Assembly (NCBI GenBank): GCA_018817645.1
Contig: JAHITK010000014.1
Location: forward strand, 9,989-73,988
Source: Patescibacteria group bacterium
Lineage (GTDB): Bacteria; Patescibacteriota; Minisyncoccia; Minisyncoccales; PEYH01
Length of the DNA: 64,000 nucleotides
Reading direction: 5' to 3'
The position numbers and the translations under genes were made by a program. The stretch's first letter is position 1. The number at the start of each line of letters is the position of its first letter. The notes under the pieces are model-generated. The model had not been told where the DNA came from, searched no databases, and was given only the letters and a program-made list of their open reading frames with translations. Shown one piece after another: positions 8,051 through 49,467 of the stretch.

Positions 8051-8725
8051 TCACTCATCTTTTTTCATAAATTTGGTGGTTTCGGAATAAAGGACTAATT
8101 TTGAACCGCCGTCAACATTTTTAATGGTTAAAATTTGCTCGGTCTTGCTGATAAATTCTCCTTGCAAAAAAACGTTGCCCGCAGTTCTCCCCGGTTGATT
8201 GGAAATATCGGGCAAGGATCCGCTGTCCCTCAATGTTTGGATTGCTTGCCTCTTTTCTTCCGGAGTCATATTTTCAAATCCCGCCGGCATATTCGGCATA
8301 TTCGCCGGCGCTTGACCGGCATTGGGCATATTCGCGTTAGAGGGAGTGCCGGTGGCGTTGAGACGAAAATTTATCTGCCCGGCATTAGGAACATTGGCGA
8401 AGTTCTCGACAGAGCCGATATAAACCATATTGGCGCTAACGCTTCCGTCCGGGTTGTCGGTTCCTTCAATCATAAGGTAATCCCCTGCTTTTAAGTCCTC
8501 CGCGCTTGCTTCGGAAAATCCTTGAAGAAAGGTTTCCATTCCTCTTGCGTCGTCCGTTGTTGTCGCATTAGCCGTCTGTTGTCCGCTGATAGCAGATTTA
8601 TCATCAACGGATTTCAAACTGTTGGTCAGAAGAATTATTCCCGCGATAATCCCGACCGCCACCAAAACCGCGGGTATTATAATCGCAATTTTTAATTTTA
8701 TATTTTTAAATTTTAAAGAAAACAT
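8051..8725 (-). CDS. Hypothetical membrane-anchored/secreted protein
   Basis: ATG at 8725 (the track start at 8734 is TTG). N-terminal TM IAIIIPAVLVAVGIIAGIILL. N/A/P/M-rich low-complexity centre. Confidence 0.6.
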   Translation of the reverse strand: MFSLKFKNIKLKIAIIIPAVLVAVGIIAGIILLTNSLKSVDDKSAISGQQTANATTTDDARGMETFLQGFSEASAEDLKAGDYLMIEGTDNPDGSVSANMVYIGSVENFANVPNAGQINFRLNATGTPSNANMPNAGQAPANMPNMPAGFENMTPEEKRQAIQTLRDSGSLPDISNQPGRTAGNVFLQGEFISKTEQILTIKNVDGGSKLVLYSETTKFMKKDE

Positions 8726-8734
8726 GCCTTTCAA

Positions 8735-8797
8735 TTTTGGATTTTGGATTTTGGATTTTGAGTTTGATTTGACATTTGGATTTGGGATTTTGGATTT
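8735..8797. repeat. TTTTGGA-heptamer / TTTGACATTTGG repeat element (copy a)
   Basis: Reads ATTTTGGATTTTGGATTTTGGATTTTGAGTTTGATTTGACATTTGGATTTGGGATTTTGGATTT. Related copies at 48058, 56613, 58000 and 58556. Confidence 0.8.
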
Positions 8798-8799
8798 AT

Positions 8800-10026
8800 T
8801 TATTCGTACCTTAACGCCTCAATAGGATTAAGCGAGGCGGCACGTCTGGCAGGATAGTATCCGAAAATAATTCCGATGGAGGCCGAGACCCCAAAAGCCA
8901 AAGCAATTGACCAGCCCGCAACATTAGTGCTGATGCCGGCGAATTTCTGAATTCCAAAAGAAATAAGCCATCCGACAATAATCCCGATAATCCCGCCCAT
9001 AAAAGTAAGCATTGTGGCTTCGGCTAAAAATTGCATACTGATGTCTCTGTTTTTGGCGCCAATCGCCTTGCGAAGCCCGATTTCGCGCGTTCTTTCCGTA
9101 ACCGTAGTAAGCATCATATTCATAATGCCAATGCCTCCGACAATCAAAGATATTCCGGCAATCGCCCCTAAAAAGATGGTTAAAGTTCCGGTTACGGAAG
9201 TCATAGTGTTCAAAATATCGGCCTGATTCATTATGGAAAAATCGGCCAAAGCAGGGTCGGCAATATTATGGCGGACTAAAAGCAAAGTGGTTATTTCTTC
9301 TTGCGCCACGGTCATATATTTCTCGTCGCTCACCTGAACATTTATAGTGGTGACATAGTTATTGCCCGACAAAAACTTTTGGGCGGTAGAAATCGGCACA
9401 AAAATAATGTCATCCTGGCTGCCGCCAAAACCCGTCCCGCCCTTGCTTTCGGTAACGCCGATGACCGTGAATTCAATCTTATTTATTTTGATTTTTCTCC
9501 CAATCGGGTCCGCTCCTTCTCCGAATAAATCAGATGCCGTAGTCGGCCCTAAAACCGCCACTTTTGCCGTGCTTTTTATATCCTGTTCCGAAATAAAAGA
9601 ACCGCTGTTGATAGTAAAATTTTTGACTCCGGCATATTGCGGAACCGTTCCGAGCACCGAAGTATTGGTGTTTGTCCCTTTGGCGGTTACTTGATACCTG
9701 GTAGAAACCTCCGGCGCTACCGCGTCTATATGAGAAATTTCTTGCAATATCGCATCAGCGTCATCTCCCGTAAGGGTCTGGGCCGAGCCCCGGCCTATAC
9801 TGATTTGCACCCGGTTTCCGCCCTGAACTCCGGGATAGACCACTAGCAGATTTGAACCGATTGACTGGATGTTGGATTTAATATCCGCTTCCGCCCCCTG
9901 ACCGATAGATATCAAAGCCACCACCGAACCGATGCCGATAACAATACCTAAAACCGTCAGCACAGTTCTGGCTTTATTAGCGAGAATGGCAGAAATCGTT
10001 TCTTCAAATAAATCGCTTAAAAGCAT
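8800..10026 (-). CDS. ABC transporter permease, MacB/FtsX family
   Basis: 408 aa. N-terminal TM, large periplasmic domain, C-terminal FtsX-type 3-TM bundle (TREIGLRKAIGAKNRDI). Confidence 0.85.
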   Translation of the reverse strand: MLLSDLFEETISAILANKARTVLTVLGIVIGIGSVVALISIGQGAEADIKSNIQSIGSNLLVVYPGVQGGNRVQISIGRGSAQTLTGDDADAILQEISHIDAVAPEVSTRYQVTAKGTNTNTSVLGTVPQYAGVKNFTINSGSFISEQDIKSTAKVAVLGPTTASDLFGEGADPIGRKIKINKIEFTVIGVTESKGGTGFGGSQDDIIFVPISTAQKFLSGNNYVTTINVQVSDEKYMTVAQEEITTLLLVRHNIADPALADFSIMNQADILNTMTSVTGTLTIFLGAIAGISLIVGGIGIMNMMLTTVTERTREIGLRKAIGAKNRDISMQFLAEATMLTFMGGIIGIIVGWLISFGIQKFAGISTNVAGWSIALAFGVSASIGIIFGYYPARRAASLNPIEALRYE

Positions 10027-10775: not shown

Positions 10776-10920
10776 CTGCCGAGACCTGCCGAGATCAGAA
10801 TCCTGCCGAGATCAGAATCCTGCCGAGATCAGAATCCTGCCGAGATCATTTCTCGGCAACTTTTTCTCGGCAACTTTGCCGAGAAATGATCCAACTTTGC
10901 CGAGAAATGATCTCGGCAGG
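10776..10920. repeat. Array of GCCGAGA / TCTCGGC half-sites (set 1)
   Basis: CTGCCGAGATCAGAATC x3 in tandem, plus palindromes GCCGAGA-TCATT-TCTCGGC and GCCGAGA-AATGA-TCTCGGC. About 10 half-sites in 145 bp. Confidence 0.85.
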
Positions 10921-10942: not shown

Positions 10943-12736
10943 TTAACGCATTATTCTCATCATCTCTCCTCCCCCTGCGCCGGCTGAAAAACCATTGGAT
11001 GTTCCGGTGCTTGAATTATTAGAGGAAGAAGCAGAGGTCTGGATAATCACCTCATCTCCTTCGTTAAGGCCACTGGTAATTTCTGTCATTGTGTCGTTAG
11101 AAAGCCCCGCCTCCACCGCTTTCCGGCTGATTGTTCCGTCCGAAGACATAATTTCAACATACTGCTGCTCCCCTTGATATTTAACGGCGGAATTTGGAAC
11201 CAGAAGCACTCCCTGTTTGATGTTTGTCATAATCTCCGCCGAAATGCTCATATTCGGCTTTATTTTATCCTCCTGCGTATCCAGGGCTATTTTCACATCA
11301 TAACTCACTACGCCTTGGCTTACTGTCCCCAAGGTGTCAATATCCGCCACTTCTCCGGTAAGAGTCATCTCTTCAATGGCGTCAAGCGTAATGGTGGCTT
11401 TCTGGCCTAATGCCAACTGACTTACATCCACTTCGTTAAGAGTAATTTCGGCTAATTTTTGTTTGGTGATAATGGACGCCAAAACGGTTCCCGAAGAAAC
11501 GGATTGTCCTTTTGACGCATTGGCTTCAATTATTATTCCGTCAAACGGAGCCCTTACATAACAATTATCCAGCGTCTTTTTAGCGTCGGTTAAAGCGTCT
11601 TTCTTCTGTTGAACCGCAATTTCTTTGGCTCTGATTTCCAGAGCATCCGCTCCCGCTTTAAGATTTTCCAAACTCAACTCTTTTTCCTTAATGCTTCTCT
11701 CTGCCGACACAATCGTGTCTTTGGCGCTTTGAATGCTGCGTTGAACCGATAAAAGAGTAGAAAGATGGCTATTGACTTTTGAGATATATGACTTCAGTTC
11801 TGTCTGATAAGCGGTTACATCGGAGAAAATCCTCAGTCCTTTTTTGGTGCGGAAATCCACCCAATAGTCAAGCATATTTATCTCGCTTTTTATTGTTTCG
11901 GACATTGCCCGAATGGTTTGAATCGTTTCGTCTAATAAAGCGTCAATCGTCTCCTGGTCAGAAAGGCGGTTGGCTGCCCTATAACTGCTCAGATTATCAT
12001 CATATTTCTGGCGAACGGCAGAATATGCTTCCTCCGCTTTATCGGTAAATGTCAGGAATTCCGTTCTTTCGTCAATATATTGAGAGGGAATAGAATTAAT
12101 TAAGCCGTGAACATTATCGTTCCCACCGGATACATCGGGTTCGTTATCCGCTAATTCCTGGCCATATAAGACATTCTCTGTGTCTGTAATGATTGTCGGC
12201 AAATCAAGGAAGACGTTTGCCACATCATTAAAACCGTCTTCGTAAGCATTCAGAATATTTTCTTCATCCTTGGGAATGGATTCTTTGGTGGACAATAAAT
12301 CATTTTCCGCTTTTAACAATGTCAATTCATCCGGAGGATTTGACAGCTCTTGCAGGTCTAATTTTGCCGTTTCTAATGATGTTTCCGCGTCCCGCACCGC
12401 TTTTTCAGCGTCGCTGGTGTCAATTTTAAAAAGCAAAGTTCCGGCTTTGACCTCATCGCCGTTTTTAACGCTTACAGAGACTATGTCGCCTGAAACCCGG
12501 GGCTTGATGTCCGCTTGGTTGGAAACCGCTATCTGGCCGGTCCCGCTTACGGTGGTGATAAGAGTCCCTTTTTCCACAATGGCGGTAGTATAACTTATCT
12601 CCCCTTGATTTTGCGAACTCATAGTTCTGATTCCAAAATAACCCGCTAAAACAAGGATGGCGATTATGATGATGGCAATAAACTTATGCCTCATCATCCA
12701 CTTATACAAGCTCTTAGCCCTAAAAAATATTTTCAT
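10943..12736 (-). CDS. HlyD/MacA-type periplasmic adaptor (membrane fusion protein)
   Basis: N-terminal TM, long coiled-coil hairpin, beta-barrel C-domain, operon partner of the ABC/FtsX genes. ATG at 12736 chosen (track start 12787 is GTG); the start is uncertain. Confidence 0.8.
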   Translation of the reverse strand: MKIFFRAKSLYKWMMRHKFIAIIIIAILVLAGYFGIRTMSSQNQGEISYTTAIVEKGTLITTVSGTGQIAVSNQADIKPRVSGDIVSVSVKNGDEVKAGTLLFKIDTSDAEKAVRDAETSLETAKLDLQELSNPPDELTLLKAENDLLSTKESIPKDEENILNAYEDGFNDVANVFLDLPTIITDTENVLYGQELADNEPDVSGGNDNVHGLINSIPSQYIDERTEFLTFTDKAEEAYSAVRQKYDDNLSSYRAANRLSDQETIDALLDETIQTIRAMSETIKSEINMLDYWVDFRTKKGLRIFSDVTAYQTELKSYISKVNSHLSTLLSVQRSIQSAKDTIVSAERSIKEKELSLENLKAGADALEIRAKEIAVQQKKDALTDAKKTLDNCYVRAPFDGIIIEANASKGQSVSSGTVLASIITKQKLAEITLNEVDVSQLALGQKATITLDAIEEMTLTGEVADIDTLGTVSQGVVSYDVKIALDTQEDKIKPNMSISAEIMTNIKQGVLLVPNSAVKYQGEQQYVEIMSSDGTISRKAVEAGLSNDTMTEITSGLNEGDEVIIQTSASSSNNSSTGTSNGFSAGAGGGEMMRIMR

Positions 12737-12857
12737 AAAAAAATTATTAAAGATTAAAAAGAGATATTTCTTGCTGAAATATCCCACACTTTATTACTAC
12801 AACAATTACTACAACAAAAATCAAATTTTGTTTCATTTTCTCAACCTGTCTGTAAAC

Positions 12858-12962
12858 TGCCGAGATCGTTTCTCGGCGGTTTCTCGTCTCGGCAGTTTCT
12901 CGGCGCTTCTCGGCGCTCTATGGCTAATTGCCGGGATTGCCGAGATCGTTTCTCGGCGGTTT
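12858..12962. repeat. Array of GCCGAGA / TCTCGGC half-sites (set 2)
   Basis: TGCCGAGATCGTTTCTCGGCGGTT occurs twice (12858 and 12939), with extra TCTCGGC half-sites between. The right copy encodes the last residues (PPRNDLG) of the 12924-13709 ORF. Confidence 0.85.
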
Positions 12963-18458: not shown

Positions 18459-18551
18459 TTTTCCTTAGGTGCTGGCGATAATATGCCTAATAATTTATCT
18501 TTCTCATGTAAAAGAAAAAAATAGAAGAAAAAATAGAGTTGACCCCATTTT
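18459..18551. repeat. Dispersed ~85-bp repeat (copy 1) ending in AAAAAATAGAGTTGACCCCATTTT
   Basis: Matches 22168-22247 base for base, except for a 13-nt internal duplication. Confidence 0.85.
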
Positions 18552-22140: not shown

Positions 22141-22247
22141 AAAAATAGATTTGACACCAATTTTTATTTTTCCTTAGGTGCTGGCGATAATATGCCTAAT
22201 AATTTATCTTTCTCATGTAAAAGAAAAAATAGAGTTGACCCCATTTT
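22141..22247. repeat. Dispersed ~85-bp repeat (copy 2) flanked by a degenerate and a perfect TAGAGTTGACCCCATTTT motif
   Basis: 22168-22247 matches 18459-18551. 22141-22165 (AAAAATAGATTTGACACCAATTTTT) is a degenerate motif copy. Confidence 0.85.
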
Positions 22248-26052: not shown

Positions 26053-27456
26053 ATGATTAAGGTATATAATTCCCTGACCAGAAAGAAAGAGATATTTAAG
26101 CCCTTGAAAGACAAAAAGGTGGCTTTTTATGTGTGCGGGCCAACGGTTTACGGGCCTGGACATATCGGGCACGCGCGGACATATATTGCTTTTGATATTA
26201 TCAGAAGATATTTAGAGCATAAAGGCTATAAAGTGAAATATGTGATGAATATTACTGACATTCACGACGACATTATTACAACGGCCCAAATGCAGAAAAC
26301 AGACATTTTTGTCTTGGGCAATAAATACACAAAACTTTTTTTGGAGGACCAAAAAAAACTTGGCATCAAGCCAGCGACTGTTTATCCAAGGGTAACAGAA
26401 CATATAAAGGAGATTATAAAATTCATTCAGGAGTTGGAGAAAAGGGGTTTTGCCTATGAGAAAAATGACTCTGTATATTTTGATGTTTCCAAGTTCAAGG
26501 ATTACGGCAAGCTTTCAGGTATCAAGGTCCAAAAAACAAAGACAGGCACAAGAGTGGAAACAGATAAATACGAGCGCGACGAAGCAGTTGATTTCGTGCT
26601 GTGGAAAAAAGCCAAAAAGGGCGAGCCATTTTGGGAGAGTCCTTGGGGGCAAGGCAGGCCGGGCTGGCATATTGAATGCTCGGTGATGATTAAAAAACTT
26701 CTGGGCGAACAGATTGACATCCACGCCGGCGCCCGGGATTTATTGTTCCCTCACCATGAAAACGAGATTGCCCAAACAGAGTCAATTGCCAAGAAAAAAC
26801 CCTTTGTAAAATACTGGCTGCACGGCGGTCTTTTGATGATAGAAGGGCAAAAAATGTCCAAGTCGCTCGACAATTTCATCACCATAGAAAAGGTTTTGGA
26901 AAAATGGGAGCCGAGGGTGCTAAGAATGTTTGTCGCTTCCAGCCATTACCAAAGCGAATTAAATTGGTCGGAGAAAAATCTTTTGCAGGCGAAGAAAAAT
27001 CTGGAGAGGATGGAGGAACTTGTAAACAAACTCAAAACTCAAAACGCAAAACGCAAAACAACAACTCAAAAATCAAAACAGATTGAGGCCATAATGCGGA
27101 AAGCAAGAAAGGGGCTTAAAGGGGTGATGGAGGATAATTTCAACACGCCGGAGGCGCTGGCAGGGCTTTTTGAAATGATAAAAGCGATAAATCCCCTGCT
27201 TGATAAAAATGAAATTGATGAAAAGCAGGCGAAAAAGATTTTGGAATTTCTGAAAGAGATTGATAAAATTTTTAACTTTATTTTTCCGTATAAAAAAGAA
27301 AGTGTTCCCGCTCACGTCAAGGAATTGGTCAAAAAACGAAAGGAATACAGAAGAAGCAAGCAATGGCAAAAGGCAGATGAAATCAGAAAACAAATTGAGC
27401 GATTAGGATTTGCGATAAAAGACACGGCCAACGGAACAGAAATAAAGAGGAAATGA
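26053..27456 (+). CDS. cysS: Cysteine--tRNA ligase
   Basis: HIGH motif (GHIGHAR), KMSKS (KMSKSLDN), Zn-binding C28/C209/H234 context. 467 aa. Confidence 0.95.
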   Translation: MIKVYNSLTRKKEIFKPLKDKKVAFYVCGPTVYGPGHIGHARTYIAFDIIRRYLEHKGYKVKYVMNITDIHDDIITTAQMQKTDIFVLGNKYTKLFLEDQKKLGIKPATVYPRVTEHIKEIIKFIQELEKRGFAYEKNDSVYFDVSKFKDYGKLSGIKVQKTKTGTRVETDKYERDEAVDFVLWKKAKKGEPFWESPWGQGRPGWHIECSVMIKKLLGEQIDIHAGARDLLFPHHENEIAQTESIAKKKPFVKYWLHGGLLMIEGQKMSKSLDNFITIEKVLEKWEPRVLRMFVASSHYQSELNWSEKNLLQAKKNLERMEELVNKLKTQNAKRKTTTQKSKQIEAIMRKARKGLKGVMEDNFNTPEALAGLFEMIKAINPLLDKNEIDEKQAKKILEFLKEIDKIFNFIFPYKKESVPAHVKELVKKRKEYRRSKQWQKADEIRKQIERLGFAIKDTANGTEIKRK

Positions 27457-29315: not shown

Positions 29316-29367
29316 CCCGCCTGCATCGCTATGCGAGCCAGCTCGCTTGCGAAGCATTGCGGGCAGG
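29316..29367. repeat. 52-nt GC-rich structured element (copy 1, minus orientation)
   Basis: Its reverse complement CCTGCCCGCAATGCTTCGCAAGCGAGCTGGCTCGCATAGCGATGCAGGCGGG is about 85% identical by eye to 55653-55707. Confidence 0.7.
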
Positions 29368-29392
29368 TTAATTTTTAATTTTGAATTTTGAA

Positions 29393-30406
29393 TTAATCAT
29401 CATCACTCCCGGAAGGAAGCTGTTTTTCCTCTGACGACCCTTCTAATAATCGCTCTACCCTATCATCAAAACGGGATAAGAGCTTTTCAGAATCATCATA
29501 AGAAGATAAAGCGTTTTTCAAATGGCTTCCCAATTTTCTGAACACATCCATTATCTTCTTGCCATTTTGCTGTATTTTTGTCAATCTTTTTAAGATATCC
29601 TGGGTCTTTCTGCTTATCTGGACATCTTTATACCAATGACTTACCGCAGATAAAGTCAATAAGATATTATTCGGCGAGGCCAAAATTATTCTCTTGGAGC
29701 GGGCGAATCTTGCCAAGTCCTCCTCTTGCATCATTGTTATCTCGTAATAGACCGCTTCGGCTGGAATATACATAATCGCCTGATCAGTGGTCCCTTCGGA
29801 GGGCAAAATATATTTTGAGGCAATTTCTTGTATTTTTACCTTAGTATCTTCAATAAACTTCTTGCGGAACAGCTTCTTCTCCTCATCATTTTCCGCTTCA
29901 ACCATCTTCTTATAATTGTCATAGGAAAACTTTGCGTCTATCGGGAGAATCTTATTATTCGGCAATTTCAGAGCAATGTCCACCTGTTCGCCCGAAGAAA
30001 ACAAATACTGCGATTGGTAAAGTTCTTTCGGAAAATATTCGCTTAAAATGTGCTCCAAGCTTTCCTCGCCCCACTCCCCTCGCAACTTCGGCGACCGGAA
30101 TATTTCCTGAAAAGAAGAAATGCTTTTCATCACCTCTTGGACTTGCTTCATATCTTCTCGGATTTGGACCGTCTCTTTGGTAAAAGAGGAAATCTGCTGG
30201 TTCATTGCTTTGGAAGTTCCGTCAACACTGCCACGGATCTCTTTTAATTGCCCGGACATCAGGTCAGTTAATCTTCTTTCTAAATCTCTGATAGAATCAT
30301 TCTGTTTCTGGTCTATATCCCCTTTCTTACGGGTCAAGAAAAAAGCTACAGCCATCATGCCTCCTGCAATAAGTATAAACACAATAATTAATAAAGCATC
30401 ACTCAT
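29393..30406 (-). CDS. rmuC: DNA recombination protein RmuC
   Basis: N-terminal TM, coiled coil, RmuC nuclease-like core (LPIDAKFSYDNY...MYIPAEAVYYE). Confidence 0.8.
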   Translation of the reverse strand: MSDALLIIVFILIAGGMMAVAFFLTRKKGDIDQKQNDSIRDLERRLTDLMSGQLKEIRGSVDGTSKAMNQQISSFTKETVQIREDMKQVQEVMKSISSFQEIFRSPKLRGEWGEESLEHILSEYFPKELYQSQYLFSSGEQVDIALKLPNNKILPIDAKFSYDNYKKMVEAENDEEKKLFRKKFIEDTKVKIQEIASKYILPSEGTTDQAIMYIPAEAVYYEITMMQEEDLARFARSKRIILASPNNILLTLSAVSHWYKDVQISRKTQDILKRLTKIQQNGKKIMDVFRKLGSHLKNALSSYDDSEKLLSRFDDRVERLLEGSSEEKQLPSGSDDD

Positions 30407-32668: not shown

Positions 32669-33570
32669 ATTATCTTTTTGGCTATTCTTAATTTTGCCGA
32701 CCTTGAACGAGGGTTAACGCTAATCTCCTCGAAACCGGGAATAATTGGTTTTTTCGTGATGATTTCAAAAACATGAATCTCCTGGCATCTCTTGAAAAAT
32801 CTTTTTACTTCTCCGTCCTCCAGAGAGTGAAACGAAATGACGGCGATTCTCCCCTCTTTTGCCAAGACCTCTGCCGCCTGCACCAATCCTTTCTTGACAT
32901 TTTCTATTTCAGAATTTACGGCTATGCGCAGGGCTTGAAATGTTTTGGTGGCCGGATGAAGCTTTTTCCTTTGGTAGCGCGAAGGGAGCGCTGACCAAAC
33001 GACTTCTACTAAATCAAATGTCGTGCGTATTGGTTTTTCTTTTCTTTGCTCCCCTATCTTCCGGGCGATAATCCGGGCAAATCGCTCTTCTCCATAATCC
33101 TTCAGAATCTTCTCTATATCCTCTTCGGAATAGCTGTTTATTATTTCCAGGGCAGTCAAGGAATTGGTTTGAGGATTATATCTCATATCAAGCGGTTCAT
33201 CCTCTCTGAAAGAGAATCCTCTTCCGCTTTCCTCAAAGTGCCAGCTTGACAGGCCCAAATCCATTACAATCCCGTTCACCGGCCCGAAGCTCCGTTCGGC
33301 AATAATGTTTTTAAGGTTGATATAAGAATCATTCACTAAAATCAACCTGTTTTGGATTTTGGATTTTGGATTTTGGATTTCGCCCTCCTCCTGGAATTTT
33401 CTGTAAAGTTCCGGGTCCGCTTCTATTGCCAAAACCTTCCCGTCCGGTTCAATTGCGTCCAAGAGGGCGAAAGTGTGCCCTCCTTCCCCAAAAGTGCAAT
33501 CAATGAAATTCTCGCCTGGTTTCGGGTCAAGCCATTCTATAATTTCTTTTGTAAGTACGGGCGTATGCAT
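32665..33570 (-). CDS. rsmH: 16S rRNA (cytosine1402-N4)-methyltransferase RsmH
   Basis: HTPVL...DCTFGEGGH...DLGLSS...RGFSF...PLDMR...SFHSLED. Contains a heptamer-repeat-encoded insertion EIQNPKSKIQN. Confidence 0.9.
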   Translation of the reverse strand: MHTPVLTKEIIEWLDPKPGENFIDCTFGEGGHTFALLDAIEPDGKVLAIEADPELYRKFQEEGEIQNPKSKIQNRLILVNDSYINLKNIIAERSFGPVNGIVMDLGLSSWHFEESGRGFSFREDEPLDMRYNPQTNSLTALEIINSYSEEDIEKILKDYGEERFARIIARKIGEQRKEKPIRTTFDLVEVVWSALPSRYQRKKLHPATKTFQALRIAVNSEIENVKKGLVQAAEVLAKEGRIAVISFHSLEDGEVKRFFKRCQEIHVFEIITKKPIIPGFEEISVNPRSRSAKLRIAKKII

Positions 33571-34422: not shown

Positions 34423-37400
34423 TTATAATCTTACCAATTCCGATTCCTTTTTCTTTCTCATCCAATAATAACCGGTGAAAACAAGAATTCCGCTTAATAT
34501 CAGGATAAACAATATCACCAGCCAGAAGGCCAAACTGCCGATTATTTTAACAATCTGGGAAAAGATTGTTCCAGCCGCGGCCGCGCCTCCCGCGCCTTTC
34601 AAGACCTCGATGCTTACACTGTCGCTGGTGGTTTTATCCTCTCCATAAACAACCGTGCTCAAATTGCTTAAATAAGTGGTTCCGGAAGTGAATTCGCCAG
34701 CATCGCCCACTTTGGCGTCAAAGCTTATATATTTAGATTGCTTTGGAGCCAAGGTTCCCAAACCAAACCCAGCCAGAATATTGCCCACGAACGGCGTATC
34801 ATCCACTTTCAGATTTCCTAAATAATCAAGGTTTGTCGGCAAAAAATTTTCAAGCTTAACATCGGAAATGGTTTCATTGCCGGAAGAAGCCACAATAATC
34901 AAGAATGAAAGCTTGTCTCCGGGTTCTGCTGACAGGGTTTTCTTCCAACCTTCGTCAATGCCTGACTTTTTTACCAAAACAGAGACAGCCACGGTGTCAG
35001 CCATCGGAAGTTTTACATCAACCGGGCATTCGCAAAATGTCTCATTGCAATTTACTGCCCCGTCTCCGCAATGCTGACAACTTGAACAATAGTCAGTTGA
35101 GTCCTTGCTGCAAGTTGTGCCATCGCACTTTAAGTCATGATAACATCTGTCTATGTCGCATCTGTCTAAGGTGCAGGAGTTGTCGTCCTCGCAATCCATA
35201 TATTTGCTTAAGCGCGTTCCGGAAGAATTATACCAATAGACATCATTATCATAACACTGCCTTGTCTGAATTATCGGAGTCACTGAACAAGTTGAATTAT
35301 AATTACAGGTTGAGTCGCCCACCGAACAGGTTTCATTGCTTGAACAATAGTCAGCCACTATCCAGGAAGACCAATTGCCCCAGCTTCCCCAATTGCCGTC
35401 GCATTGGGCGCTCTCTCCGGAGCAATATCTAAATCTTATTCTGGTGCTCTGCCCGACATCTGCGCCGCATCCCGCTCCCCAAGGGCAGCTGTATTGGGTT
35501 TCTGATTCGCTCTTGCAAACAGCGCTTGAACTCTTATAATTTTGCCCGTCGCAACAGGGTCCGGAAGTGCATTCCTGTTCTGCCACGCACTGGCCGTTCT
35601 TGCAGGTCTCATCGCTGGCGCATTTTTTCACAAAAGATTTCTGCAGAGATGAATTGCTGAAGCAGGAACTGCCGGAACATCCTTTGTCATAGCAAGTCCT
35701 CTCTTTATAGACGCTGTCTCCGGAGCAATAATAAGAGCTCCAGGAGGTACAAGAGTCGTCTCCGCAATCCTCATATCTGTCTTGCCTGCTGTTATTGGAA
35801 TCATACCAATAAACATCGTTGTTGTAACAGGATTTGTGGTCGTTTTGATTGTAACAAGAGTAGCAGTTGTTGCAATTATTGCAGGTATCACAGATATTGC
35901 ATCCGCAACTGGAATCATAATTGCAAGTATATTCAGCGACGCCCCCGGTGCAATACCAACTTGGCTTTTGGTTGCTGTTACAGCTTCCATAACCGCAATA
36001 AGTCGGTCCCAAAATGCTCTCAACCGGAGACCATTCCAAGCAGGAATCGGAATCATAATTTCCGCAGGTCTGCTTATGGGCGCTGTCATAACATCTTACC
36101 TGTCCGGAAAAAGCGCATTCGCTTTGGCAGGCCTGTCCGCAATCTTGCGAACAATTGTATTGATTTTCTCCGCATTCAGAATTGCAGATTCCATTTCCAC
36201 AGGAATAACACTGCGAGGAACAGGTAGAATCGCTGTATGTGCAGGTTCCGCCCGAACAATAATAGTCCCGGCGAGTACTGCCGATGCAAGTGTCAGTCCC
36301 GCAGCTTTCCGGACTTGACCATTCTAAACAGGAATCCGAGTCGTAATTTCCGCAAATTTTCTTTGAACCGCTGTCATGACAGGTTGTCTGGCCAGTTACA
36401 GCGCATTCATCCTGGCAAGTGGGTGGATTACAGCTTGAATCGCTTACGCATTTTGATTCAAATTGAGTATCGCAACTATTGGGACTGCAAGTTCTTGTCC
36501 GGGTTTGATACATTTGGCCTGAACCGCATCCATCTTGAGCGCATCCCTGATTGCTCCAAGAACTCCAATCATTGCATTGGCAAGTAGTCACGCACTGGCC
36601 ATTGCTGCAGATTTTCCCGATTGCCGAACAATCCTGATAATTTTCCCATTGATTTTGAGCAAAACAAACAGCGCCTGAACATCCTCTAACAATCTTTTTT
36701 CTTTGAACCATATTGCCAGAGCATTGATAATCGTCTGTCCAGAAATCACTGCCGCATTCGTCATATTTATCTTCTCTGGCGCTGCAGGAATCATACCAGT
36801 AAACATCATTGTCATAGCAGGACTTGTAATTGTGGGTGGTGCAAGTAGTCACGCATTGTCCATTGCTACAGACCTTGCCATCGTCAGCGCAATTATATTC
36901 ATTCACCCACTCGTTATAGTTATAGCAAGAAGAACCGGAACATCCTTTCTTGTTCTTTTCTCTTTGAACCCAGTCCCCGGAACATTGGTAATTAGTAGTC
37001 CAGGAATCGCTCCCGCAGTTCTGGCTGGTTTGCCACACTGCATTGGAAAAACAAGAAGCATTGGAGCATCCTTTATCTAACCATTTTCTTTGTAAAGTGT
37101 TTCCTGAACATTGATAATCGCTGGTCCAGCCGCTGGTTCCGCATTCGCTGGATTTATCCTCTCTCGCCTGACAGGAGTTGTACCAGTAAACATCATTGTC
37201 ATAGCAGGACTTGTAATTGTGGGTGGTGCAAGTAGTCACGCATTGTCCATTGCTGCAGGTTTTTCCACTGGTTGAACAATTCTGATAATTTTCCCATTGA
37301 TTGTAATTATAGCAAGAAGAACCGGAACATCCTTTCTTGTTCTTTTCTCTTTGGATCCAATCCCCGGAACATCTGTAATTGTCGGTCCAGGAGTCGGAAC

Positions 37401-37953
37401 CGCAATCCCCGTAATCTTTCCAAATTGTATTGCTGAAACAGGAACTCCCAGAGCATCCTTTATCCAGCCACTTCCTTTGCAAATGGCTCCCGGAACATTG
37501 ATAATCGTTGGCCCAACCGGTAGAGCCGCAGTCCTGATATATCCCTTCTCTGGCGCCGCAGGAATTATACCAATAGACATCATTATTATAGCAGGCCCGA
37601 TGATCTTGAGGGGTGCAAGAATTCACGCACATCCCATTCTGGCAGACAGTGCCGGAAAGACAACTCATAGAAGAGGACCATTCTAAACAGACATCGCAGT
37701 CATAGTTTCCGCAGGCCTTGTAATGAGTGGAATCGGTGCAAGCTCTTTGGTCATAATATGAGCATTCGTCGGAGCAACTTGTGCCGCATCCCCATTGCCC
37801 ATAAACCACATAACTCTTAGAAAAATTAGAGTCATCTCCATTAGAATCAAAATGCGCCTTTATTAAAGGTTGGATTAAAAATGCGAGAGCAAAAAGAGTG
37901 ATAACAATAAAAAATACTCTTAATTTCTTCATATTTTTTGTGCCGTATGGCAC
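34423..37953 (-). CDS. Giant cysteine-rich repeat surface protein with C-terminal membrane anchor
   Basis: 1176 aa. Signal peptide, 3 tandem 129-aa Cys-rich modules (387-bp DNA period, e.g. 36811 vs 37198), WSxWS/CGxG...RTRTC thrombospondin-type-1-like motif, Ig-like C-domain, terminal TM + RKKK. Confidence 0.8.
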   Translation of the reverse strand: MPYGTKNMKKLRVFFIVITLFALAFLIQPLIKAHFDSNGDDSNFSKSYVVYGQWGCGTSCSDECSYYDQRACTDSTHYKACGNYDCDVCLEWSSSMSCLSGTVCQNGMCVNSCTPQDHRACYNNDVYWYNSCGAREGIYQDCGSTGWANDYQCSGSHLQRKWLDKGCSGSSCFSNTIWKDYGDCGSDSWTDNYRCSGDWIQREKNKKGCSGSSCYNYNQWENYQNCSTSGKTCSNGQCVTTCTTHNYKSCYDNDVYWYNSCQAREDKSSECGTSGWTSDYQCSGNTLQRKWLDKGCSNASCFSNAVWQTSQNCGSDSWTTNYQCSGDWVQREKNKKGCSGSSCYNYNEWVNEYNCADDGKVCSNGQCVTTCTTHNYKSCYDNDVYWYDSCSAREDKYDECGSDFWTDDYQCSGNMVQRKKIVRGCSGAVCFAQNQWENYQDCSAIGKICSNGQCVTTCQCNDWSSWSNQGCAQDGCGSGQMYQTRTRTCSPNSCDTQFESKCVSDSSCNPPTCQDECAVTGQTTCHDSGSKKICGNYDSDSCLEWSSPESCGTDTCIGSTRRDYYCSGGTCTYSDSTCSSQCYSCGNGICNSECGENQYNCSQDCGQACQSECAFSGQVRCYDSAHKQTCGNYDSDSCLEWSPVESILGPTYCGYGSCNSNQKPSWYCTGGVAEYTCNYDSSCGCNICDTCNNCNNCYSCYNQNDHKSCYNNDVYWYDSNNSRQDRYEDCGDDSCTSWSSYYCSGDSVYKERTCYDKGCSGSSCFSNSSLQKSFVKKCASDETCKNGQCVAEQECTSGPCCDGQNYKSSSAVCKSESETQYSCPWGAGCGADVGQSTRIRFRYCSGESAQCDGNWGSWGNWSSWIVADYCSSNETCSVGDSTCNYNSTCSVTPIIQTRQCYDNDVYWYNSSGTRLSKYMDCEDDNSCTLDRCDIDRCYHDLKCDGTTCSKDSTDYCSSCQHCGDGAVNCNETFCECPVDVKLPMADTVAVSVLVKKSGIDEGWKKTLSAEPGDKLSFLIIVASSGNETISDVKLENFLPTNLDYLGNLKVDDTPFVGNILAGFGLGTLAPKQSKYISFDAKVGDAGEFTSGTTYLSNLSTVVYGEDKTTSDSVSIEVLKGAGGAAAAGTIFSQIVKIIGSLAFWLVILFILILSGILVFTGYYWMRKKKESELVRL

Positions 37954-39267: not shown

Positions 39268-39393
39268 AAGTTTAATTTTTAATTCTTAATAATCTGTTTG
39301 AAAATTAAAAATTGGTATTTCATTGTAAATTGTAAATTGGAAATTGAAAATTAACTTCTTTTATGTTTTTAGACCAATGGGCTGCCGATATAA

Positions 39394-47345: not shown

Positions 47346-47375
47346 TAGCAGGAACGACCTTATGCGTTCCTGCTA
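47346..47375 (+). terminator. Intrinsic terminator after the 47143 mini-gene
   Basis: TAGCAGGAACG-ACCTTATG-CGTTCCTGCTA followed by TTCTTTTT. Confidence 0.7.
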
Positions 47376-48053
47376 TTCTTTTTCTACTAAGGGGACAAAG
47401 ACAAATCCTGGATATTCTTCTTTTTCAAAAGACCCATCCGCTTTTTTAGTAAAAGCGCAAATGGAGTTATTTATCGGCATCACTATTTTACCGCCGATTT
47501 TAACCTGTTTTTCCCAAGCGGAGGGCATACTGTCCGCCGAAGCCGAACAAAGAATCCTGTCAAACGGAGCTTCCTGCGGATAGCCCTTTCTTCCGTCTCC
47601 TAAGATAAATTCTAACCTGCCTTGCTTAATAAATCCATACTTCCCGGCATTTCTTTTTCCGAGTTCTTTTAATTCAGGGACAATCTCAATAGCAATCACC
47701 TTGCCATTAATTTGAGATTTGGAATTTTGGATTTGTTTGGGATTTGGGAATTGGGAATTGAGAATTCCCTTCTGGCTTACTATGTAAGCCAGAAGGGCGC
47801 TTGTCCAGCCGGAACCAGAGCCGACATCAAGAATTTTGTTCCCGGCTTTGGGCCCTAATTTCTCCAGCATAAAAGCCACTACTAATGGCTGGGAAATCGT
47901 CTGCCCATAGCCGATTGGAAACGCCTCATCCACCTCCGCCATCTCTTTATAGCCATCGCCTAAAAAATCCTCGCGTTTAACCGTTTGAAACGCTTTGATA
48001 ATTTCCGGGGTCTTTAGCCAACCCTGTTTAATTAAATCATCTGTTAAAGACAT
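47373..48053 (-). CDS. pcm: Protein-L-isoaspartate O-methyltransferase
   Basis: GQTISQPLVVAFMLEKL, VLDVGSGSGWTSALLA. Carries a repeat-encoded insertion ILNSQFPNPKQIQNSKSQIN. Confidence 0.85.
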   Translation of the reverse strand: MSLTDDLIKQGWLKTPEIIKAFQTVKREDFLGDGYKEMAEVDEAFPIGYGQTISQPLVVAFMLEKLGPKAGNKILDVGSGSGWTSALLAYIVSQKGILNSQFPNPKQIQNSKSQINGKVIAIEIVPELKELGKRNAGKYGFIKQGRLEFILGDGRKGYPQEAPFDRILCSASADSMPSAWEKQVKIGGKIVMPINNSICAFTKKADGSFEKEEYPGFVFVPLVEKE

Positions 48054-48057
48054 GTCT

Positions 48058-48212
48058 TAAATCTCAATGTCAAAATCCCAATGTCAAATCAAATCCAAAT
48101 GACTCAATGTCAAAAGAATACATTTTTTCAATTTGGATTTTGGATTTTGAGCTTGATTTGACATTTGAGCTTTGGGTTTTGGGTTTTGGGTTTTGGATTT
48201 TGGATTTTGAAT
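48058..48212. repeat. TTTTGGA-heptamer / TTTGACATTTG repeat element (copy b, inverted pair)
   Basis: Reverse-type arm (AATGTCAAAATCCCAATGTCAAATCAAATCCAAATGAC), a spacer, then the forward arm (TTTGGATTTTGGATTTTGAGCTTGATTTGACATTTGAGCTTTGGGTTTTGGG...). Confidence 0.85.
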
Positions 48213-48237: not shown

Positions 48238-49467
48238 CTACTCATAACTCCGCAAGGCCTCCGTGGGTCTTAACTTCGCGGCTTTGCGGGCAGGCAAATA
48301 TCCTGAAAGGCAGCCAATCAAAAATGAGAAAAATAATCCGAATATTATTAACGATGCCGGCATATACGCTTCCAACAAAAATGCTCCGCTTGCCCGGCTG
48401 TAACCCTCTATTAGTTTGGCAACGATAAGCCCAAAAATTACACCGCCGGCGCCGCCTATCAAACCGAGAATGCCCGATTCTATCAGAAAAATCGAAATAA
48501 CCGCGCTGTTCTTCGCCCCAATTGCTTTCAATACTCCTATTTCTTTTGTTCTCTCCCGCACAGAGGTGAACATCGTATTCATAATTCCAAGTCCTCCGAC
48601 CAAAATTGAAATAGCGGCAAAGAGCATCACTGCCGCCTGAATCACTCCGAGAACCCCGCCGGCAATACTCCCCATTTTTTCCGAGGTGAGCACTGAAAAA
48701 TCTGACACATCTTCTCCCCTTCTCCTTTTTCTTACCTCGTCCAACTCACTTTTTATCCTGGCCGCTAGTTCATCCGGGGAAACTCCCTCTTCTGCCTTAA
48801 CCATAATCGCCAAAGCGCCTCCCTCCCTGTCTCCGGTGATCTGTTGGAAGACCTCCCGGTCAAGATAAACCGATGTATCGTCCCCTTTATTCCCGATAGA
48901 ATTCAAAATTCCTACCACCTTAAAAGATTTGCCGTTAACAGTAACTGTATCGCCTACTTTTATTCTTTTGCTAAAGAAGTCCTTTTCCGCCACCAAACTG
49001 CCGAGCAAAAGTTCTCTTTTGCCGGGTGAGGGCCAGGTGCCTTCAGATAAATTCCAACCCTGAAAATTGCTCAAAAAATCCTTTCCCTCGTCCCAAGGAA
49101 AACCAGTAAGAAAAATTGTTTTCTGCTCATTGTTATAGCGCATCAGTTGAGATTTTTGAGACATGGGCAAAGCCACCTCCACTCCCTTCGTCTTTTTGAC
49201 TGTTTGGATGTCTTCTTCGCTTAACATCTGACCGCCCATAAATGTTGTTAAGGGGTTATCTATAGCCCCAGGCATAACAAAAATTATATCCCCGCCCAGA
49301 GCATTTAATTGCTTAAGGATAGTATTTTTAATTCCTCCACTGAGAGAGATAAGGGTTATTACTAAAAAAATTCCGACCACAATACCAAGAATAGTCAACC
49401 AACTCCTTAATCTTCTGGTCTTGAGATTTTTTATAGCAAGCTTAAAATATTCTTTTATTGCTTCCAT
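48238..49467 (-). CDS. ABC transporter permease, MacB/FtsX family (paralog 2)
   Basis: 409 aa. Same architecture as 8800-10026 (TKEIGVLKAIGAKNSAV). Confidence 0.85.
   Translation of the reverse strand: MEAIKEYFKLAIKNLKTRRLRSWLTILGIVVGIFLVITLISLSGGIKNTILKQLNALGGDIIFVMPGAIDNPLTTFMGGQMLSEEDIQTVKKTKGVEVALPMSQKSQLMRYNNEQKTIFLTGFPWDEGKDFLSNFQGWNLSEGTWPSPGKRELLLGSLVAEKDFFSKRIKVGDTVTVNGKSFKVVGILNSIGNKGDDTSVYLDREVFQQITGDREGGALAIMVKAEEGVSPDELAARIKSELDEVRKRRRGEDVSDFSVLTSEKMGSIAGGVLGVIQAAVMLFAAISILVGGLGIMNTMFTSVRERTKEIGVLKAIGAKNSAVISIFLIESGILGLIGGAGGVIFGLIVAKLIEGYSRASGAFLLEAYMPASLIIFGLFFSFLIGCLSGYLPARKAAKLRPTEALRSYE

Follow-up and report, generated by a model that had tools for sequence, protein, structure and literature searches.

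The window, that is the whole 64,000-nt stretch of Patescibacteria contig analysed here, carries five intergenic copies of a heptamer-based repeat, all of them between minus-strand genes and all at the positions where a sequence-only reading of this DNA had placed them (Table 1). The gene content around them is housekeeping. The copies stand well above chance: the 13-mer GATTTGACATTTG was found nine times in the window with at most one mismatch against 0.26 expected, a count that none of 100 shuffles reached, and TTTTGGATTTTGGA with at most two mismatches was found 31 times against 3.9 expected. A search of the window with a profile of the 56-nt arm described below detected eight arms (E 4e-12 to 4e-7). 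The copies take the form of four arm-loop-arm elements of ~95-155 nt, one of them with a truncated left arm, and one single arm. The arrangement as inverted pairs, which had been attributed to the family, is therefore seen in the long copies and not in 8735-8797, which is a single arm, or in full in 58556-58648, whose left arm is truncated.

Table 1. Coordinates of the heptad-armed repeats in the window, with matches to the 56-nt arm profile
Feature	Position	Strand	Arms and profile matches
Solo arm	8735-8797	(-)	profile 8744-8795(+), E 1.3e-8; CAAA-type read on the gene strand
Left CAAA-type arm of a gene-less paired element	48058-48111	(+)	profile 48066-48111(-)
Right TTTG-type arm of the same element	48132-48212	(+)	profile 48133-48182(+)
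Gene-less paired element	56613-56730		arms 56615-56666(-) and 56679-56730(+); loop ~9-12 nt
Gene-less paired element	58000-58117		arms 58003-58052(-) and 58064-58116(+)
Element with truncated left arm	58556-58650		left arm 58556-58585; complete right arm 58601-58650(+)

The single arm at 8735-8797 occupies the gap between a macB-like gene (stop 8800) and a 224-aa gene (start near 8727); it is lengthened by TTTTGGA/TCCAAAA heptads and retains the mini-ORF MSNQTQNPKSKIQN*, with its ATG at 8775. The element at 48058-48212 lies between a macB-like gene (48238-49467) and pcm (47373-48053), with an ATG at 48081 in its left arm, reading MSNQIQ.., and with tandem TTTTGGG/TTTTGGA heptads that extend the outer end of its right arm. 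The element at 56613-56730 is situated between rnc (stop 56738) and rpsP, that at 58000-58117 takes up the entire gap from rpmF to nusB and has a mini-ORF ATG at 58021, and that at 58556-58650 stands between a 718-aa gene and rpmF, immediately following the stop codon of the former (58648). Copies had been noticed to abut the stop codon of the upstream gene, and indeed 0-4 nt separate an arm end from the stop codon in four cases: the macB-like gene at 8800, rnc, rpmF (L32) and the 718-aa gene. The called starts of nusB and rpsP fall within elements. The similarities read from the sequence were also recovered by alignment, with 92.9% identity over 113 nt between 56613-56730 and 58000-58117, and 90.8% identity over 87 nt between 48058-48212 and 58556-58648.

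Three shorter heptamer runs that had been listed beside the family, at 53861-53895, 29365-29395 and 39320-39350, do exist and give no match to the arm profile. These runs are part of a wider surplus of period-7 arrays in this genome, and their membership in the family is not demonstrable. Among the tandem repeats of the window, 7 nt is the most frequent period (23 of 92 TRF rows).

Several other repeats were observed in the window. Heptad runs occur inside the ORFs of rsmH (33350-33380), pcm (47709-47766), trmD (55078-55103) and cysS (27028-27079), always CAAA-type on the coding strand; they would encode K/Q/N/P-rich stretches such as IQNPKSKIQN and resemble tandem repeats that create disordered protein segments. 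A 47-nt inverted pair, 29318-29364 and 55657-55703 (83% complementary, ..GCGAGCCAGCTCGCTTGCGAAGC..), has one member near rplU and the other, 26 kb away, between trmD and khpA. Perfect tandem repeats of 17-, 14- and 21-nt units with a common motif, CTGCCGAGA/TCTCGGCAG, at 10785-10912 and 12871-12946 flank a 614-aa ORF (10943-12787). The five copies of another family, AAAAATAGAGTTGACCCCATTTT, which contains a promoter-like TTGAC, are located at 18510, 22122, 22206, 23073 and 63425, and a perfect 62-nt duplicate is formed by 18459-18520 and 22168-22229, 3.7 kb apart. Finally, a 1176-aa ORF (34423-37953) has no Pfam match and is built of 387-nt repeats that are ~78% identical.

Filled and empty sites in a conserved gene string

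The rpmF-nusB-rnc-rpsP string is conserved in seven relatives, in which RNase III is 71-91% identical. The rpmF-to-nusB gap, which is 134 nt long in the window and consists entirely of the element, measures 12, 5, 11 and 13 nt in the relatives L121, L223, L224 and L225, respectively. When the element is subtracted, the window site reads TAAAATTTCTAATAACATG and the L121 site reads TAAAATTTCAATAATATG, which delimits the insertion to within a 2-nt AT ambiguity. The presence/absence polymorphism at orthologous sites that had been proposed as a check on the family was thus found, with one site filled in the window and empty in four relatives. The rnc-to-rpsP site is filled only in the window and in L124, a 91% relative with homologous flanks; the L124 copy has diverged and its right arm is built of different heptads, implying that the arms change through heptad turnover as well as point mutation. 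Target-site duplications of at least 3 nt were not found: among 35 elements, a 3-nt duplication was seen in none, a 4-nt match in one and a 5-nt match in one.

Elements of the family often occupy gaps between co-directional genes, including those inside rpmF-nusB-rnc-rpsP, and some are located between divergent genes. Solo arms showed no strand bias with respect to transcription (14 vs 15 and 13 vs 11). The elements seem to insert into the short spacers that follow stop codons, or to persist only there, and would be transcribed as part of the host operon.

Other arrays were seen in the same gene string. The nusB-to-rnc gap is filled by an octamer array, GCAATTAA/ACAATTAA on the gene strand (57442-57590, 18.5 copies), which overlaps the nusB 3' end; this array has ~20 copies in L124, 3 in L121 and none in L223 and L225, whose gaps measure 2-3 nt. 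The same gaps of relatives hold heptad arrays of other "dialects" (L123 5392-5505; L121-L124 upstream of rpmF), for example ATTTCTA four times, ATCA, three more units and then ATTGAAA four times (the same 4 + 4-nt + 3 layout as in the arms), or runs of AATCAAT or TGATAAC. The heptad layout appears to be generic in the lineage while the heptad sequence turns over. Because period-7 arrays with unrelated heptads are found in other gaps, slippage and heptad turnover must also shape these regions. A GC-rich segment, GAGCCGGAGCGAACCCCGAGCGGGCCGAGGGGGAGCGGAGGCGAGGGAAC (~58397-58445 in the window), lies directly 5' of the rpmF GTG start and is conserved in four relatives; it is duplicated 5' of nusB in L122 and L124, and a similar sequence, GAGCGAAGCGAAGG, adjoins the AAATGCA run at 53840-53860. 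This segment is possibly a leader or another small repeat family.

Arm architecture, pairing and spread across genomes

A scan of one genome per species with the 19-nt core GRRYTTGATTTGACATTTG gave at least 119 stretches. The same heptad flanks are present in ~105 of the 119 listed, and about a dozen are bare chance matches. The repeat family is not private to this genome and is very widespread. Among the matches listed, the carriers belong to many classes of Patescibacteria, to Desulfobacterota and to Chloroflexota, and other carrier MAGs are labelled Gammaproteobacteria, Latescibacterota and others; such labels depend on the quality of the binning and may be wrong. Some family copies lie on long contigs or beside genes that are unlikely in Patescibacteria (argJ, secA and asmA; L057). 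An archaeal occurrence is not claimed, because the sole contig labelled Candidatus Pacearchaeota (L096) carries a bacterial-type RNase J with an RNase_J_C domain and a bacterial solute-binding protein (SBP_bac_5), which makes its label doubtful. The 15 core matches in IMG/VR contained one distinct arm-like sequence (L215, identical to L220), the others being chance matches.

A composite subfamily of ~375 nt was also observed, in which conserved flanks and an insert of ~110 nt between two heptad arms are found (L057 827-1200 and 5420-5790; also L014, L032, L033, L042, L043, L052 and L116). In a Desulfobacteraceae MAG two copies in inverted orientation enclose argJ-secA, and nearly identical ones are present in differently labelled MAGs.

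The architecture of the arm was obtained from a matrix of 100 copies anchored on the 19-nt core. Information content is zero on both sides of a 56-nt arm, showing that the arm has sharp ends; conserved boundaries, the lack of which would have pointed to mere low-complexity drift according to the sequence-only reading, are thus present. The TTTG-type arm is composed of T, TTTGnnn, TTTGnnn, TTTGGAT, TTGA, TTTGACA, TTTGAnn, TTTGnnA, TTTGnnn and TT, and the mirror arm of CAAA type, also 56 nt, of AA, four degenerate heptads nnnCAAA, TCAA and three nnnCAAA. In each heptad four fixed bases are conserved over ~100 genomes and the three variable bases are free, and the TCAA centre is conserved as well. 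A complete short element consists of a CAAA-arm, a loop usually of 0-18 nt and a TTTG-arm, and this order of arms was found 35 times and the opposite order never.

If the repeats were locally made low-complexity DNA, produced by 7-nt slippage with no common origin, one would expect what is seen in part: the dominance of period 7 in the window, arms visibly lengthened by tandem heptads (48167-48212), and a neighbouring octamer array that ranges from 3 to 20 copies between relatives. However, the sharp 56-nt boundaries, and a TCAA centre, a 4+3 heptad count and an arm order that are the same in ~100 genomes of several phyla, together with the constant register of the arms relative to the start codon of a single gene family (see below), make such an origin hardly credible.

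The match of CAAA to UUUG, repeated once per 7 nt, allows the paired forms to build a long RNA stem rich in mismatches, which RNase III could cut by analogy with the rRNA intervening sequences (IVSs). On either strand, folding energies of -37 to -40 kcal/mol (z -4.7 to -6.7) were obtained for the regions 56605-56740 and 57990-58125. The value for 48055-48200 was -33 kcal/mol (z -3.3), and 8725-8805 and 58550-58655 gave no fold. The ability to form long imperfect hairpins, predicted earlier, is thus clearest in the two best palindromes and is not shared by every copy. The mean fold of 34 elements was -31.6 kcal/mol, compared with -15.4 kcal/mol for shuffled arms, but chimeric arm pairs folded better than the native ones (-36.7 vs -31.6 kcal/mol, p = 8e-4). 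At the 23 variable positions of the mini elements, arm complementarity was 31.6%, compared with 37.5% for shuffled partners, and none of 2000 permutations fell below the observed value; in 52 full-length cassettes the complementarity was 35.0% compared with 35.4% for shuffled arms. Complementarity in both mini and full-length forms, and the folds of the chimeras, rule out the hairpin as a conserved feature: the arms do not covary, and pairing is not maintained. The deficit of pairing in the short forms would probably reflect the instability in DNA of long perfect palindromes with short spacers, those with mismatches having survived.

These results bear on the idea that the paired copies are selected RNA hairpins in operons, serving as RNase III sites or as 3' stabilisers in the manner of E. 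coli REP/BIME. The folding energies of the two best palindromes and the position right after stops in co-directional gene strings agree with this idea, as does the fact that the stems of rRNA IVSs are RNase III substrates (PMC4990558). On the other hand, complementarity below or equal to that of shuffled partners and the better folding of chimeric arms are not what selection for a hairpin would leave, no fold is formed by solo arms or by the 58550-58655 copy, and elements are also present between divergent genes. We therefore regard selected hairpins as quite improbable.

TTGACA is contained in every copy, as had been stated, and a mobile promoter/terminator module had been suggested. This suggestion failed. 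In one region 6 promoter-like sites were counted where 4.8 +/- 2.5 were expected, and in the other none where 1.1 were expected, so that TTGACA has no -10 partner above chance, and TTGACA is merely one of the allowed heptads (TTTGACA). Neither a sigma-70 promoter with 16-18 nt spacing nor an intrinsic terminator with a GC-rich stem and a T-run was found in the copies: the stems are AT-rich, with no GC clamp and no T-run, and no terminator-like site lies within any copy. One hybrid promoter candidate is directed towards rpsP, combining TTGTCA of the arm, an 18-nt spacer and TATGTT of the flank. In addition, elements sit inside conserved operons that need read-through. A portable promoter with TTGACA as its -35, or a terminator formed by the hairpin, is thus highly improbable. 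No Rfam family matched the copies at the gathering threshold or at permissive E-values, apart from microRNA-precursor hairpin models far below the threshold, and the Rfam matches in the window are tRNAs and the L10 leader only.

A gene-bearing relative of the repeats

The full form of the element is ~0.5 kb long and consists of a 56-nt left arm, a gene of ~125 aa and an inverted 56-nt right arm. Arms adjoining a ~125-aa ORF were found at four genome loci, two with both arms (L007 and L017) and two with one detected arm (L051 and L108). The ORF belongs to PF05635, the "23S rRNA intervening-sequence protein" family (S23p; E 1e-16), and to TIGR02436, a four-helix-bundle protein family (E 3.5e-23), and the closest solved structure to the cassette protein is 2RLD. 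The cassette ATG is located in the most conserved stretch of the arm and the first ~11 codons (MSNQIQNPN..) are encoded by the arm, which read from the start codon is A-ATG-TCA-AAT-CAA-ATC-CAA-AAT-CCA-AA, or M S N Q I Q N P; seven heptads cover the gene from ATG-22 to ATG+33. A search for the subfamily returned 6458 protein clusters at E<=1e-10. The best 120 of these 6458 all carry M[STP]NQ.QNP.., either at the start or after a short arm-encoded extension, followed by YDLxERTAKFGE.

A metagenome scan for cassettes gave at least 600 stretches, and the 80 best loci were examined. Of these 80 best loci, 64 have a CAAA arm that spans the ATG and ends on its outer side at ATG-22, 47 have a TTTG arm soon after the stop, and 38 have both; with a position matrix, both arms were recognised in 52 distinct cassettes. 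The right arm begins 2-17 nt past the stop in most full-length copies, and the full-length relatives have no good Shine-Dalgarno sequence. The orientation of full-length copies is that of the upstream gene in 64 of 67 cases, and often no more than ~12 nt separate the stop of this gene from their arm end, in agreement with the earlier remark on copies abutting stops. The neighbourhoods are unrelated, the commonest neighbour gene family recurring in at most 7 of the 80 cassette loci, and no recurrent mobility gene, transposase or reverse transcriptase was found beside the 80 cassettes, so that no mechanism of movement can be named. The cassette protein gave no match in PADLOC and PHROG, libraries of defence and phage proteins; a phage origin was rejected, as relatives of this protein are absent from IMG/VR.

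The window corresponds, in reverse complement, to positions 1062-65061 of a 133.7-kb ENA metagenome contig. No full-length copy or PF05635 gene was found in positions 1-73157 of this source contig (precomputed Pfam annotation of called genes), and no homologue of the arm-associated four-helix-bundle subfamily was found among the window ORFs. All eight window arms retain the ATG and an M[ST]NQ.. peptide, such as MSNQTQNPKSK, followed by a stop; these are remnants of 14-28 codons and no gene is present. Because every arm keeps the start codon and the peptide without the gene, the window copies correspond to the two cassette ends minus the gene. The direction of descent could also be the reverse, the gene having been captured in the loop of a pre-existing palindrome. 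We consider it probable that the repeats are non-autonomous, miniature (MITE-like) relatives of an IVS-like PF05635 cassette that is common in uncultivated bacteria. The cassette would then be, or have been, mobile or selfish, and the gene-less forms would be its miniature derivatives.

The features conserved in the arms, namely the TTTG/CAAA phase, the 4+3 heptad count and the TCAA centre, point to protein recognition of each arm, and the ends would most likely be recognised by a protein that reads the TTTG/CAAA phase arm by arm, not through pairing between the arms. This leads to the possibility that the arms are working protein-binding arrays and that the gene-less copies are regulatory or architectural sites tying operons to PF05635 or to another host protein. 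Such arrays would account for four fixed bases per heptad and a TCAA conserved over ~100 genomes with three bases left free, and for arms without covariation, which fit recognition of each arm better than base pairing; similar 7-bp arrays are bound by the omega repressor of pSM19035, which may serve as an analogy. Yet close relatives lack the elements at the same sites, so that no host function is required there, no PF05635 gene is present in 73 kb of the contig, and the same conservation would arise just as well if spread were limited to copies whose ends are intact. For these reasons we think that binding sites with a host function are an unlikely explanation, and we return below to miniature relatives of an IVS-like cassette.

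Relation to intervening sequences and other known elements

IVS elements and S23p proteins have been known since the early 1990s, while their origin, mobility and function have remained unexplained; mobility has long been suspected and never shown (PMC4990558). In Coxiella, the S23p ORF has a poor Shine-Dalgarno sequence, is bordered by inverted repeats and is excised by RNase III as part of the IVS, and tandem heptamers (GACAGAT), the number of which varies between strains, lie just 5' of its ATG (PMC4990558). The sequence-only reading knew of no described counterpart, and this was wrong in kind, since an IVS with inverted-repeat borders and tandem heptamers has been described (PMC4990558). 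The full-length relatives resemble the IVSs with an S23p ORF of Leptospira, Coxiella and Brucella in that they encode the same PF05635 family, carry the ORF between inverted repeats able to form a long stem, and have tandem heptamers 5' of or around the ATG and a weak ribosome-binding site. The inverted-repeat borders and 5' tandem heptamers are present in the family, and the PF05635/TIGR02436 protein is encoded by the full-length relatives and not by the window copies.

The differences from the rRNA IVSs are as follows. The window copies lie between protein genes and are not inserted in a 23S rRNA helix, and six conserved 16S/23S rRNA motifs, searched as exact matches, are absent from 205 loci (1.24 Mb). 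The arms here are made of seven degenerate heptads with a fixed TCAA centre and the start codon inside, and are only ~65% complementary without covariation, whereas the Coxiella stem is 28 bp long and nearly perfect. The family here also has abundant gene-less derivatives and spans several phyla. A further resemblance is that short ORF-less IVS hairpins occur in Salmonella and Campylobacter. We therefore class the heptad-armed family as related to IVS cassettes, working like them and MITE-like in behaviour, and not as a strict member of the rRNA IVS class.

The first description of the repeats as MITE/REP-like was appropriate in its MITE part. Like the bacterial MITEs Correia, RUP and Nezha, the short elements are small (<600 bp), AT-rich, intergenic and without an ORF, have terminal inverted repeats and many copies, show presence/absence polymorphism of the insertion, and are kin to a longer gene-bearing element. 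Unlike these MITEs, they show no target duplication of 3 nt or more, their longer partner has no recognisable transposase, and one sequence family spans several phyla. A classical cut-and-paste MITE was rejected on the first two of these grounds. The REP part of the description did not hold. The elements share with REP/BIME and REPIN-RAYT that they are palindromic intergenic repeats located after stop codons inside operons, but no RAYT/Y1 transposase family is present among the called genes of the 73 kb of source contig (positions 1-73157, precomputed Pfam annotation), neither a RAYT gene flanked by the repeats nor a conserved stem was found, pairing is not conserved, and the family is not confined to one species.

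Avd, the accessory protein of diversity-generating retroelements (DGRs), forms a small basic pentamer of four-helix bundles and belongs structurally to the same superfamily as PF05635. Unlike in the DGRs, no reverse transcriptase, template repeat or variable repeat lies beside the cassettes (80 loci). PF05635 has been cited in papers on DGRs. A further reading, which we think rather unlikely, is that the family represents a transposase-less mobile element of a new type: an Avd-like pentamer would recognise both arrays of seven heptads and promote spread or retention with the help of host enzymes, gene-less copies would be mobilised in trans, and the IVSs of 23S rRNA would be an rRNA-borne branch. 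If this reading is true, the nature of IVSs and S23p proteins could be tested directly.

Two other systems are built on 7-nt units. Cyanobacterial STRRs are simple tandem runs of one heptamer, and the omega repressor of plasmid pSM19035 binds 7-bp arrays in direct and inverted orientation, with plasmid-borne sites of WATCACW. Both resemble the arms, by description only, in their 7-nt unit, direct and inverted order and intergenic location; unlike the arms, neither is tied to a PF05635 gene. TIGR-Tas arrays were set aside because they are reportedly tandem, with a period of ~36 nt, unlike these dispersed palindromes. In the searchable literature we found no paper on this heptad-armed family, its core sequence or its gene-less copies, and none on palindromic or heptamer repeats of Patescibacteria, on MITEs in CPR or on four-helix-bundle proteins of Patescibacteria.

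The family comprises thousands of copies outside rRNA, with heptad-built ends, gene-less derivatives and clean filled and empty sites, and is thus material suited to testing whether IVS-like cassettes move and what reads their ends. It also matters for the annotation of Patescibacteria and other MAGs, in which the arms create spurious start codons and mini-ORFs and fill operon spacers, and the elements may affect mRNA processing.
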